DNA of 64,000 bases, from the NCBI RefSeq assembly GCF_988242995.1, contig NZ_OZ547043.1; one strand, written 5' to 3'. A program made the position numbers. Positions within the stretch are counted from its first letter, which is position 1; every line of letters begins with the position of its first letter. Shown in pieces: positions 25,801 to 30,936 of the stretch.

Positions 25801-28800
25801 TCAAAACGCTGGGGGCAGGGCGAGCGCAACTGCGTAAGCTAATCGTCGGTCAGTGGTTGATGGTGCTGGCGCTTTCAGCCGTTACCGGCGGGGCGATAGG
25901 CCTGTTGTTCGAAAACGTGTTGATGGTGCTGCTCAAGCCCGTTCTGCCTGCTGCACTACCGCCAGCCAGCCTCTGGCCGTGGCTGTGGGCGCTGGGCACC
26001 ATGACAGTCATCTCGCTGCTGGTGGGGCTACGACCGTACCGCTTGTTGCTGGCAACGCAGCCTTTACGCGTATTGCGTAATGATGTGGTCGCGAACGTCT
26101 GGCCGCTGAAGTTTTATCTGCCGATTGTCAGTGTGGTGGTTGTGCTGCTGCTCGCCGGATTAATGGGTGGCAGTATGCTGCTCTGGGCGGTGCTGGCGGG
26201 CGCGGTAGTGCTGGCTTTGCTGTGCGGTGTGCTGGGCTGGATGCTGCTGAATGTACTTCGCCGCATGACGCTGAAATCGCTACCTCTGCGCCTGGCGGTT
26301 AGCCGCCTGTTACGTCAGCCGTGGTCAACGTTAAGCCAGCTTTCGGCATTTTCGCTCTCCTTTATGCTGCTGGCGCTATTGCTGGTATTGCGTGGCGATC
26401 TGCTCGACCGCTGGCAACAGCAGCTACCGCCAGAAAGCCCGAACTACTTTTTAATCAACATCGCCACAGAACAGGTTACGCCGCTAAAAACGTTCCTCGC
26501 GGAACATCAGATAGTCCCGGAATCATTTTATCCGGTGGTGCGGGCGCGACTGACGGCGATTAACGACAAGCCGACAGAAGGCAATGAAGATGAGGCGCTT
26601 AACCGCGAACTCAATCTTACCTGGCAAAATACGCGGCCCGATCATAATCCGATTGTCGCCGGTAACTGGCCGCCAAAAGCCGATGAAGTGTCGATGGAAG
26701 AGGGGCTGGCGAAACGCTTAAACGTTGCCCTCGGCGATACCGTGACTTTTATGGGCGATACCCAGGAGTTCCGCGCTAAAGTGACCAGCCTGCGCAAAGT
26801 GGACTGGGAAAGTCTGCGGCCTAATTTCTATTTTATTTTCCCGGAAGGGGCATTAGACGGGCAACCGCAGAGCTGGCTTACCAGTTTCCGCTGGGAGAAT
26901 GGCAATGGCATGTTGACGCAACTCAACCGCCAGTTCCCGACCATTAGCCTGTTAGACATTGGCGCGATTTTAAAACAGGTCGGTCAGGTGCTGGAGCAGG
27001 TAAGTCGGGCGCTGGAGGTGATGGTGGTGCTGGTCACCGCCTGCGGTATGTTGCTGTTGCTGGCACAGGTGCAGGTGGGAATGCGTCAGCGTCATCAGGA
27101 GCTGGTGGTGTGGCGCACACTCGGTGCGGGGAAAAAACTGCTGCGCACCACGTTGTGGTGTGAGTTCGCCATGCTCGGGTTTGTTTCTGGCCTGGTGGCC
27201 GCAATTGGTGCGGAAACGGCGCTGGCAGTGTTGCAGGCGAAAGTGTTTGATTTCCCGTGGGAGCCAGACTGGCGATTGTGGATTGTTCTGCCGTGCAGCG
27301 GTGCGCTGCTGCTGTCGCTTTGCGGCGGCTGGCTGGGCGCGCGACTGGTTAAGGGTAAGGCGCTGTTCAGGCAGTTTGCGGGGTGATGTGATAAAGCCGT
27401 TTATTTCTACCTGGTAGATAAACGGCTTTATTATTAGTGCATCACGTAATTAAAAAATTGTTATGCCCAAACATATAATTAATATACATTGCCAAATGAG
27501 TTGTTTATTAAGTTTATATTATATAATTAAAATCTATGGAATGGGTATAATCATATGGGTGACATTATATATTTACGCATTACAGGGGAGCAACAAGGGG
27601 ATATTTCTGCAGGATGCGGGACGCAAGCCTCTGTCGGGAATCGGTATCAACAGGGACATGAAGATGAAATATTTGTTTTTAGTTTTCAGGGAGGAGTGAG
27701 TAATACAGGATTTGGCATTAATCATCAAGCGATACAATTTTGTAAAATTCTCGATAAAAGCTCACCGCTGCTGATGAATTGCATTAATAATAACGAACGA
27801 TGCCGTTTTGAGTTTGATTTTTATCGTATTAATAAATATGGGAAATGGGAAAGTTATTATTATATTGAAGTCCGCGGTGCAACGTTAACTCAGAATCAGA
27901 TTATAATAAAAGAAAATGAACTCGACTATCAATATATAACAATACACTACAAATATATCTACTGTAAGCATCTTACAGCCAATACAGAATTTAGTTATTT
28001 ACTCACACCTGAAAATTATAATCGCCTTTTCCCACCGACGCTCTTACCTGTTGAGGAAAAACCAGAAATACCGCCTGAACGAGAAATTATCCTCACCATT
28101 GGCGTATTCTTTGATGGCACAGGAAACAATTTAACCAATACGAATTTACGTATGAGTTTTTGCCAACCAGAAACCTATGGTCTGGATGTCCAGGATTTGG
28201 CCTCGTTTAATAAACAATGTATGAGCAAGCAGGGTAAAACGGGATCCGGAGTACAGAGCTATTTGAATTACTATACGAATATTCATTGGTTGAATGAGTT
28301 GTATCATCGGCAATTAGTTTTAGATGATGATGTATTTAATATTCAGGAAAAAATATATATTGAAGGTATTGGCACTGAAAATAATAAAGCAGACTCTCTG
28401 GTAGGAATGGGGCTAGGAAATAATGATACTGGGGTAATTGCCAAAACTGACCGTGCGATATCACTGCTTCGTGAGACACTGGCAGAGATTATTGTTGATT
28501 TAAAGGATGCTAAACTAGTAATTAAGCGTCTACAGTTTGACGTATTTGGCTTTAGTCGTGGGGCGGCAGCCGCACGGCACTTTACTAATCGCGTATTTGA
28601 ACGTGATCCCGTACTGATTAAAACCATTGCGACGGCATTTCAGTCAGTTGAATATTTAGGTAAACCTTCCGGGGAAGTGCAATTTTTAGGTATTTTTGAC
28701 ACAGTTGCAGCCATCGGAGGGCTGATGGATGGTTTTGACCCTCATGATGGTAATAACTTTCCGGTAAAAGTGAAGTTACCGCCAGGTGTGGCCAAACATG

Positions 28801-30936
28801 TATTCCAGCTCACAGCAATGAACGAATGTCGCTATAACTTTTGCCTCAACAGCATAAAGGAAAGCTGGCCAGAATTAAGTTTCCCTGGATCACATGCTGA
28901 TATTGGTGGCGGTTATGACCCACAGGAAGATGAGTACCTGTTTTTAAGTCGCCCGGCGATTGAAACGGTACTGGGAAATGTGCCGATGGAAGCGACAAGC
29001 GCTTACCAAAAAGCAGTACAGCAGGCAGAGTTATTGTGGCGCTATTCGACGCTGGCTCCGATTCTGCCTTCTGGTGTCCTAAAAATTGAATCCAATATTG
29101 ATGAAATAGCGTCGCCTGACCACTTAGGTAATGTGAGAAAACGGGTCGCTGCAGCGGTGACATTTCGCAGAACGATCACCAATGACTGGTCAAAGATTGC
29201 GTTAAGAGTAATGTATGAAGTCGCTAAAGAGGCAGGGGTAGTATTTGATGCCATTTCTGTTGCTGATAAGGAATTAAAAGTTCCCAGTCATTTAAAGGTA
29301 ATATGTGAAAAAGCAATTTCTCAGGGTAAAGCCGTTCTCTTGTGTACAGCGCCGATGCCTTTTTCTGATGATGAGCTTAAAACCATTGGGAAATATTTAC
29401 ACTGTTCTTCCAACTGGAATACCGTCGATTATCGATTAAAAAATAAGGTGTCTGCTGAAGTATCAGCGTTTAAGACGTTTAGTTTTGTTAATCGGCCGGA
29501 TGAAAATTGGACCAGAACTATATACGATATGCAAGGGAATAAACAAAATGGAATTTAATATAAAATTACTGTTTGTTATTACGTCTATGGTTCTTAACTT
29601 TAACGCAGCAGCGAAAGAAAAAATATTGTTGCTTGCACCCTATGATGAGTGGTATTTCAATTTTTTCTACCCTGATTCCCTACCAGCACAAGTTACCTAT
29701 GTGGAATTATTAGATACCGATGGCATCTATTATCAGTTCAGAACGCTGGCCAGTACCAATGCCAGTCCAGGAAGTGTTGGACAATGGAGCGAGAAAGTAT
29801 CAGGGATGTCGTCAGTTTTTAATAAAGCCAAAAACCCACCAATGTCTATCCATTTTTGCTGGGATTCAGTGATTGATAAAAAAGTGTATGAAACCTGGAT
29901 AACACTGGCGGGAGACGTCTGGAAATTGATGCTCACACCTTATTCACCACCAGGCGGTGGCAGTGAAAAGTATTATCTGCGGTATCTGTTAATCGGGCTG
30001 GCTCCGGAAGGAAAAGTACGGGTATGGCTTAATAAACGTGACAAACCCAATATTCGCCTGACGGATAAGCAGATTCTGATAGAAACGGTTTCAGGTGAAA
30101 AAATGGAAATGTGTAAAGGAATTTCCCGGCATGATTTTTCTCTTGGAGACGATGAATATGTTCTTGAGTTTATCAAAGATAAAAAATATCCCTATGGTAA
30201 CTGGTAAGTAACAATGAAAATAACAGCTAAAATAATTTATAGATTAACCATTGCGTTAATGATAGCCGGATCAGTCCAGACAGCAGCGAAAGAAAAAATA
30301 TCACTGCTTGCACCCTATGATGAATGGTATTTCCTTTTTTTCTACCCTAATGCGCTACCAGCACAAGTTACCTATGTAGAACTATTGGACACTGATGGTA
30401 TCTATTATCAGTTCAGAACGCTGGATGCTACCGCTCCGAGTTCCACTACTATTGGTCAGTGGAGAGATAATCTTCGGGTTGGGGTGTTATCATTCAATAA
30501 AGCCAAAAATCCCCCTATGTCTATCCATTTCTGCTGGGATTCAGTGATTGATAAAAAAGTGTATGAAACCTGGATAACGCTGGCGGGAGACGTCTGGAAA
30601 TTGATGCTCACACCTTATTCACCACCAGGCGGTGGCAGTGAAAAGTATTATCTGCGGTATCTGTTAATCGGTCTGGCTCCAGAAGGAAAAGTACGCGTAT
30701 GGCTGGAGAAACCTGACAAGCCCAATATTCGCCTGACGGATAAGCAGATTCTGATAGAAACGGTTTCAGGTGAAAAAATGGAAATGTGTAAAGGAATTTC
30801 CCGGCATGATTTTTCTCTTGGAGACGATGAATATGTACTTGAGTTTATCAAAGATAAAAAATATCCCTATGGCAACTGGTAGTTAACCAGTTGCACAATT
30901 TATTAAAGAGGAACGGAAAAGCATTTTTGTGGGTTA

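Follow-up and report, generated by a model that had tools for sequence, protein, structure and literature searches.

Gene content of the ybbP–mnmH interval

We analysed a stretch of 64,000 nt of contig NZ_OZ547043.1 (RefSeq assembly GCF_988242995.1; hereafter, the window), in which an AT-rich cassette encoding a predicted type VI secretion system (T6SS) effector and two putative immunity proteins lies between ybbP and mnmH. The left flank, ybbP (24972–27386, plus strand), is an open reading frame (ORF) for an ABC transporter permease of 804 aa with a Pfam FtsX domain, and the right flank, mnmH, also named selU (30934–32040, minus strand), is an ORF for a tRNA 2-selenouridine synthase of 368 aa with a Rhodanese domain. 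Both names come from Pfam together with the genes that RefSeq assigns to the corresponding locus of Escherichia coli GF60 (99.8% identical), and they confirm the flanks named in the initial annotation of the window. Between them, an ORF scan and Pfam searches recovered only one ORF with Hcp and Tle1 domains and two DUF2931 ORFs, all in the same orientation, which bears out the earlier description of an Hcp-effector accompanied by two immunity-like genes and nothing else. The GC content of 27387–30933 is 39.6%, compared with 52.5% and 50.1% in the adjoining 10 kb on the left and right, respectively; a sliding-window calculation placed it at the minimum among all 3,547-bp segments of the 64 kb (median 52.4%, 5th percentile 44.5%), so the visibly low GC reported initially holds in numbers as well. 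GC at the third codon position is 35–39% in the three cassette genes, 69% in ybbP and 56% in mnmH.

The first cassette gene, hcp-ET2 (27555–29558, plus strand), is a single ORF for an Hcp–Tle1 fusion of 667 aa, composed of an Hcp/TssD tube domain from residue 1 to about residue 150, a Pro-rich linker at about residues 160–172 and a Tle1/DUF2235 phospholipase domain at residues 173–661. The Hcp domain was recognized by PF05638 (E = 3e-13, residues 6–138) and by TIGR03344 (125 bits with a cut-off of 58.9, residues 1–149), and matched 3HE1, 6A2V and 5MXN in the PDB. The DUF2235/Tle1 part was recognized by PF09994 (53.8 bits, cut-off 27), and residues 173–661 aligned with residues 30–541 of Tle1 from enteroaggregative E. 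coli (EAEC; PDB 6SJL_D) with an E-value of 1.4e-127. The motifs essential in the Tle1 family, as defined in PMC10395195, are intact, namely the GXSXG nucleophile motif (G332-F-S334-R-G336, opposite the GFSRG of EAEC Tle1), the FXGXXD catalytic Asp motif (FLGIFD382) and the EXXXPGXHXDIG catalytic His motif (ELSFPGSH447ADIG). In the databases, proteins 95–98% identical to the hcp-ET2 product are grouped into clusters whose sizes range from hundreds of sequences up to about 1,500 (about 1,500 at 98%). The cassette lipase is thus homologous over its whole length to EAEC Tle1 (PDB 6SJL, 6SKI), with which it shares the Ser, Asp and His motif residues. However, EAEC Tle1 is a cargo loaded on the C-terminal domain of VgrG1, whereas the cassette lipase is covalently fused to Hcp, which substitutes for roughly the 29 N-terminal residues of EAEC Tle1; the cassette also differs from the EAEC Tle1–Tli1 pair in its location outside any T6SS cluster.

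By architecture and secondary sources, the effector belongs to the Hcp-ET2 class of specialised Hcp proteins (Hcp plus DUF2235/Tle1). Hcp-ET2 (Ma et al. 2017) is a T6SS-dependent antibacterial effector with a cognate immunity protein, according to the reviews PMC6730261 and PMC6099711. Like the cassette, the Hcp-ET2/ETI2 system comes from E. coli, combines an N-terminal Hcp with a C-terminal DUF2235/Tle1 domain, has the immunity gene(s) directly downstream and occupies an orphan locus apart from the main T6SS cluster; the cassette effector is likened to the protein that was tested (A31K_02346, strain PE321) by its architecture and through secondary sources.

The two downstream genes, imm1 (29548–30207, plus strand; 219 aa; PF11153, E = 1.6e-27) and imm2 (30214–30882, plus strand; 222 aa; PF11153, E = 4.3e-26), encode DUF2931 proteins of the Tli1 family; imm1 is likewise annotated as DUF2931 in GF60. 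The start of imm1 overlaps the stop of hcp-ET2 by 11 nt, and only 6 nt separate imm1 from imm2. The latter is a tandem paralogue of the former (81.7% amino acid identity) with a near-identical C-terminal portion, and their main difference is a hypervariable patch at about residues 70–93; the direct repeats D1 and D2 are spaced 675 nt apart. Both N-termini, as judged by eye, show an n-region that is basic, a core of hydrophobic residues and an AXA-like site (marked here by a slash: ..NFNAAA/KEK in imm1 and ..SVQTAA/KEK in imm2), and look like putative Sec-type signal peptides. The immunity proteins of Tle1 in EAEC and Vibrio cholerae are members of the DUF2931 family (PMC10395195 for V. cholerae). 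Homologues retrieved with imm2 carried only the name 'DUF2931 family protein', with no Tli1 label among them; NCBIfam had no model for either protein, and a sequence search of the PDB gave no meaningful match between imm2 and a solved structure.

The number of immunity copies is two in the window and GF60, three in EC958 of sequence type 131 (ST131) and four in AVS0533. An alignment of the nine copies from three genomes revealed a near-invariant scaffold interrupted by two hypervariable patches, one at about residues 70–93 and the other near the C-terminus; the first patch comes in three versions and the second in two, and these are combined differently among the copies. The extra copies of EC958 (6647–7270 of the extracted locus) and AVS0533 (1249–1872 and 2599–3222) are annotated as 207-aa proteins starting with MIAGSVQTAA, and therefore lack the first 15 signal-peptide codons; they may not be exported, or may be started at another codon.

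Predicted signals frame the three genes. An inverted repeat with perfectly matching 14-nt arms separated by 13 nt (27391–27431, plus strand; fold −27.8 kcal/mol, z = −6.2), whose stem is longer in the RNA fold, directly follows the ybbP stop codon as a terminator-like hairpin and opens the cassette-specific sequence. A candidate sigma-70-like promoter (TTAAAA-18-TATAAT, 27450–27479, plus strand; 10 of 12 consensus matches in the scan) is located 75 nt upstream of hcp-ET2; this candidate comes from pattern matching alone, and in this AT-rich region such sites are no more frequent than in shuffled sequences. At the other end, a terminator-like hairpin (30872–30894, plus strand; fold −15 kcal/mol, z = −3.5), found by the scan as a 9-bp stem followed by ACAATTTATT, overlaps the imm2 stop codon and is convergent with the end of mnmH. 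The gene overlap, the short spacer and the hairpins at both ends suggest an operon-like layout. No Rfam family was matched at E ≤ 1 over 26800–31600.

Alternative alleles at the junction

In K-12 MG1655, the genes rhsD, ybbC, ylbH, ybbD, ylbI and ylbG are annotated between ybbP and selU (mnmH). BLAST comparisons placed the left limit of homology with K-12 at 27395, and with K-12 and the other junction alleles at 27388–27395, that is, 2–9 nt past the ybbP stop codon; on the right, the match to K-12 and to the allele of dinQ type restarts at 30955. The K-12 RhsD element therefore occupies exactly this junction, as the initial annotation had stated. Because homology restarts only at 30955, the variable segment includes the last mnmH codons: it reaches 30954, about 21 nt into the mnmH 3′ end, and replaces these codons. 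The extent first given to the cassette, 27387–30933, was thus nearly exact, but fell short of the segment's true end inside mnmH. The allele-specific mnmH 3′ end (30934–30954, minus strand) is also evident from the MnmH C-termini, which read WVQTYACGY in the window (368 aa), WVKTYACGY in EC958, WVKAR in K-12 (364 aa) and WVKAQ in N61. The segment 27396–30954 had no alignment to the K-12 rhsD region, and its Pfam matches were only Hcp, Tle1 and DUF2931. No remnants of Rhs or dinQ-like elements were found inside the interval, and the window had only unrelated matches resembling repetitive extragenic palindromic (REP) elements elsewhere.

We then counted the junction alleles in 5,426 complete E. 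coli genomes by separate marker-sequence searches, in which overlaps and composite alleles are possible. The RhsD-type element, detected by an RhsD leader marker and including that of O157, was found in 2,907 genomes (53.6%), and a module of about 0.7 kb with REP elements and a dinQ-like type I toxin gene in 1,315 (24.2%). The Hcp–Tle1 cassette followed with 573 genomes (10.6%), which agrees with its earlier designation as accessory rather than core. A 240-bp allele with REP elements only was present in 282 genomes (5.2%), and a 58-bp scar or near-empty junction, as in N61 and IHE3034, in 128 (2.4%). The five markers sum to 5,205 hits, and at least 221 genomes matched none of them. With a 25-kb query over the locus, occupant sizes of about 0, 0.15–0.3, 0.7, 1.4–1.6, 2.9, 6.0–6.9 and 7.3 kb were observed. 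The ybbP–mnmH junction thus has at least five alternative alleles in E. coli.

These alleles differ in kind. The K-12 RhsD element resembles the cassette in that it occupies the identical junction, is present or absent among strains and consists of a T6SS-associated polymorphic toxin followed by immunity and orphan modules. However, there is no sequence homology between them: the Rhs element is 6–7.3 kb long with a GC-rich YD-repeat core, and its delivery domain is an Rhs cage instead of the Hcp tube protein. With the dinQ-like module, the junction has a third type of toxin, unrelated to the other two; in E. coli S1-JOR-02-A (2798–3509 of the extracted locus) the module comprises REP elements and a gene for 51 aa with the annotation DinQ, a damage-inducible type I toxin, together with two copies of a terminator-like repeat (AACCGACTGTCATGTCGGTTTTTTT). 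The 58-bp allele (2154–2211 of the extracted N61 locus; also in IHE3034) is a hybrid: 31 nt at its start match the beginning of the cassette-specific sequence that follows ybbP and comprise one hairpin arm, and the remainder matches the terminal part of the REP-only allele. This allele resembles a scar left where the cassette was lost or replaced in some B2 lineages. Jackson et al. 2009 (PMC2935791) described ybbA–ybbB as conserved Rhs locus 3, with differing C-terminal tips at one position. A literature search found no publication on alternative occupancy of the ybbP–mnmH junction, with only the 2009 study listing Rhs locus 3.

Several genomes have IS1 inserted in the cassette (e.g. NZ_CP019000.1, 4599853–4604124). 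Some of these cassettes are listed as separate Hcp and Tle1-domain fragments, which suggests that the effector gene is disrupted in them. In a comparison of six genomes, the core genes adjacent to the junction were unusually diverged, with identities of 96.0–98.0% for ybbP and 95.4–98.4% for mnmH (regions corresponding to 24972–27386 and 30955–32040 of the window), while the nearby ybbA, allS and allA were mostly 98–99.8% identical. The raised divergence of ybbP and mnmH fits diversity that is linked to a polymorphic site close by.

Recombination and proposed function

The alignment with GF60 gave direct evidence of exchange by recombination at the locus. Over 27601–31098, the window differs from GF60 at only 2 of 3,498 bases, while the flanks have 305 differences in about 16 kb (1.9%), and we infer that this tract, defined by pairwise alignment, was recently introduced by homologous recombination. 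Its left end falls within hcp-ET2 and its right end 144 bp inside the portion of mnmH that is shared, and the whole lipase-coding part of hcp-ET2 is 100% identical to the GF60 copy. The window and GF60 are not clonal, because the rest of the window is only 92.6–99.6% identical. In the comparison with ST131 EC958, the tle1 part is 99.4% identical, whereas ybbP and mnmH are 96.0% and 96.3% identical, respectively. These patterns indicate a recent transfer of cassette DNA between diverged backgrounds by homologous recombination, and the exchange appears to proceed via the flanks rather than by site-specific insertion.

Combined with the gene content, this makes it highly probable that the interval is an orphan T6SS effector–immunity operon of the Hcp-ET2 class, moved among lineages by homologous recombination at a junction with multiple alleles. 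In the proposed mechanism, the Hcp domain would be loaded into the inner tube of the T6SS and expelled on sheath contraction. The lipase would thereby be carried into the periplasm of a neighbouring cell, where it would hydrolyse membrane phospholipids. The two DUF2931 proteins would be Sec-exported to the periplasm and neutralise lipase delivered by sister cells, and the two different hypervariable patches of imm1 and imm2 probably widen the protection to variant toxins. The T6SS apparatus would be encoded elsewhere in the genome, and the cassette, which has no mobility genes, would move between lineages by homologous recombination, either via the conserved genes on its two sides or inside the cassette itself. 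The gene content, the conserved domains and motifs, the allele census and the recombination signature are results of the analysis, while the operon signals are predictions.

Several points weigh against this interpretation. T6SS-dependent secretion of the hcp-ET2 product, the phospholipase A1/A2 activity and periplasmic toxicity of its Tle1 part and the immunity function of imm1 and imm2 are all predicted from homology, and the likeness to the protein tested by Ma et al. depends on architecture and secondary sources. There are no T6SS core genes in the 64-kb window. A T6SS acting in trans is supported by GF60, which has a T6SS cluster (tssB-C-E-F-G/tagH/hcp/vgrG) beside yafV, about 330 kb from its near-identical cassette; however, this cluster is no more than a candidate for the firing apparatus, as its Hcp and the Hcp domain of the cassette share only 29% identity. 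No T6SS was found at the aspV/dnaQ site of EC958; the T6SS-1 of ST131 lies elsewhere, and its copy in clade C, including EC958, is inactivated by ISEc12 in tssM (PMC10711316). Moreover, the first 30 residues of imm1 and imm2 contain no Cys and thus no lipobox, in contrast to EAEC Tli1, a member of the same DUF2931 family that is an outer-membrane lipoprotein. A lipobox is not required in the wider family, since the DUF2931 immunity proteins of V. cholerae are described only as signal-peptide proteins (PMC10395195). The left end of the GF60 tract lies inside hcp-ET2, and therefore the tract documents the replacement of one cassette allele by another among cassette carriers rather than a swap of module type, such as Rhs for Hcp.

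The suggestion in the initial annotation that the site is a hotspot for the exchange of polymorphic toxin modules is supported by the RhsD, Hcp–Tle1 and dinQ-like alleles together with the recombination signature at the locus, with the refinement that the detected event concerns two Hcp cassettes and not an Rhs element and an Hcp cassette.

History and wider context of the cassette

Related cassettes were found beyond E. coli. The ybbP–selU junction of Salmonella enterica subsp. houtenae contains an Hcp–Tle1 gene (61% amino acid identity) and one DUF2931 gene (60%), and the cassette may be old at this site, because a homologue is found at the same junction. Upstream of the S. houtenae cassette there is a 377-aa ORF (4451–5584 of the extracted locus) with no Pfam match, a signal peptide and a porin-like C-terminus (..RYDF). 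Atlantibacter, Kluyvera and Enterobacter have a compact Hcp–Tle1 cassette at unrelated sites. As in E. coli, these Enterobacteriaceae cassettes encode an Hcp–Tle1 protein of about 660 aa followed by one or two DUF2931 genes, and are situated between housekeeping genes without mobility genes. They differ in their amino acid sequences (45–69% identity), in being mostly at other sites, S. houtenae being the one that shares the ybbP–selU junction, and in a GC content of 43–52%, compared with 40% in the E. coli cassette, though always lower than that of their own flanks. A further paralogue (69% identical Hcp–Tle1) is located directly downstream of kdpA–ybfA (6001–8179 of the extracted locus) in a genome that is probably Salmonella-like, judging from its kdpA/ybfA region, which is about 77% identical to that of E. 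coli. In K-12, the kdpA/ybfA junction holds RhsC, and this would be a second case of Hcp–Tle1 and Rhs at an equivalent site. Jackson et al. 2009 (PMC2935791) list that K-12 junction as Rhs locus 5 (kdpA–phr).

The relatives bear on a different history, in which the Hcp–Tle1/DUF2931 module resided at ybbP–mnmH before Escherichia and Salmonella split, and the RhsD, dinQ-like and empty states are later replacements or deletions. This history concerns the past of the locus only and is compatible with the proposed function; we regard it as possible but on balance doubtful. The S. houtenae module at the same junction fits it, as does the 58-bp allele of the B2 strains N61 and IHE3034, which keeps the beginning of the cassette-specific sequence like a deletion scar, and Jackson et al. 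2009 (PMC2935791) inferred a late origin of the Rhs element here, after the split from one pathogenic group, by duplication of another locus. However, a third-position GC of 35–39% is not ameliorated, only about a tenth of the genomes carry the cassette, and no junction sequence is held in common with the Salmonella locus, which has the extra porin-like gene. The module also relocates, as shown by homologues at unrelated sites in other genera and by the paralogue at another site in the Salmonella-like genome. Whatever the deep history, the cassette is far less diverged than its flanks between distant lineages, which requires recent transfer. Low GC could instead point to a site-specific mobile element, an integrative island or transposon targeting the ybbP–mnmH intergenic region, as could the abrupt limits of the alleles, which fall at almost identical nucleotides throughout, and the occupation of the same junction in Salmonella. 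We consider this extremely improbable. The ORFs, Pfam matches and GF60 annotation gave no integrase, transposase, insertion sequence (IS) or tRNA gene at the cassette, which has only three ORFs; a repeat scan found no flanking direct or inverted terminal repeats, no RNA family was matched, and the limits of the GF60 tract are displaced from those of the cassette, a pattern that homologous recombination would produce. The mobile element was rejected for its missing repeats and mobility genes and for this offset.

Another possibility is that the cassette is kept mainly as a shield, with the effector idle or decaying in cells that have no working T6SS and selection acting on the DUF2931 genes against attack by Tle1. 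EC958 and other members of ST131 clade C, with T6SS-1 inactivated (PMC10711316), keep the cassette with three immunity genes, and in this clade it may act mainly in that way. The four immunity genes of AVS0533, the shuffling of hypervariable patches among immunity copies, the IS1 insertions with separate Hcp and Tle1-domain fragments in some genomes and the fact that K-12 also keeps Rhs elements without a T6SS point in the same direction. For the cassette as a whole, however, this is unlikely: the effector ORF of the window is uninterrupted over its 667 aa and keeps every catalytic motif, its lipase-coding part is unchanged relative to GF60, which encodes a T6SS cluster, and between lineages no other part of the cassette is as conserved as tle1, which is unexpected for a decaying gene.

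A more speculative idea, to which we give little credence, is that the ybbP–mnmH junction, and perhaps also kdpA/ybfA, is a conserved cross-genus 'toxin dock' where unrelated toxin modules (Rhs, Hcp–Tle1 and the dinQ-like type I toxin) displace each other time and again. With every such exchange, the final mnmH codons would be rewritten and ybbP would receive the terminator of the incoming module. If so, an unknown property of the site or selection, for example frequency-dependent selection on weapon and immunity alleles, would keep several alleles in the species and would also raise the diversity in adjacent core genes.

Earlier publications cover the effector class (Hcp-ET2, Ma et al. 2017), the immunity family DUF2931 and the Rhs locus (Jackson et al. 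2009), and no new kind of system is described here; the quantified allele census, the recombination signature and the cross-genus use of the junction are modest additions. The cassette is a textbook case of how E. coli strains differ in contact-dependent weapons, as the junction holds one of several unrelated toxin modules or none and ordinary homologous recombination shuffles these among lineages, and is relevant for predicting which strains kill or resist which others in the gut. ST131 carries it with expanded immunity arrays although clade C has lost T6SS function. The junction allele could also serve as a marker in typing schemes.

Elsewhere in the window, at 52090–53565, an IS3-family insertion sequence with transposase ORFs of 176 and 240 aa on the minus strand lies between ybcF (carbamate kinase) and purK, and is missing from the GF60 locus. 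Positions 1–16400, only 92.6–96.6% identical to GF60, contain by alignment to that genome part of a giant Ig-like-domain protein and type I secretion genes (ABC permease/ATPase and HlyD adaptor) beside cueR. A YadA-like adhesin region at about 17–18 kb aligned only partially with GF60, with one stretch of about 620 bp at 81% identity. A second low-GC stretch (43–45%) lies within 58900–64000, and an sfm/fim-like fimbrial operon (fimA, fimC and usher) was located by GF60 alignment at about 60,300–64,000.

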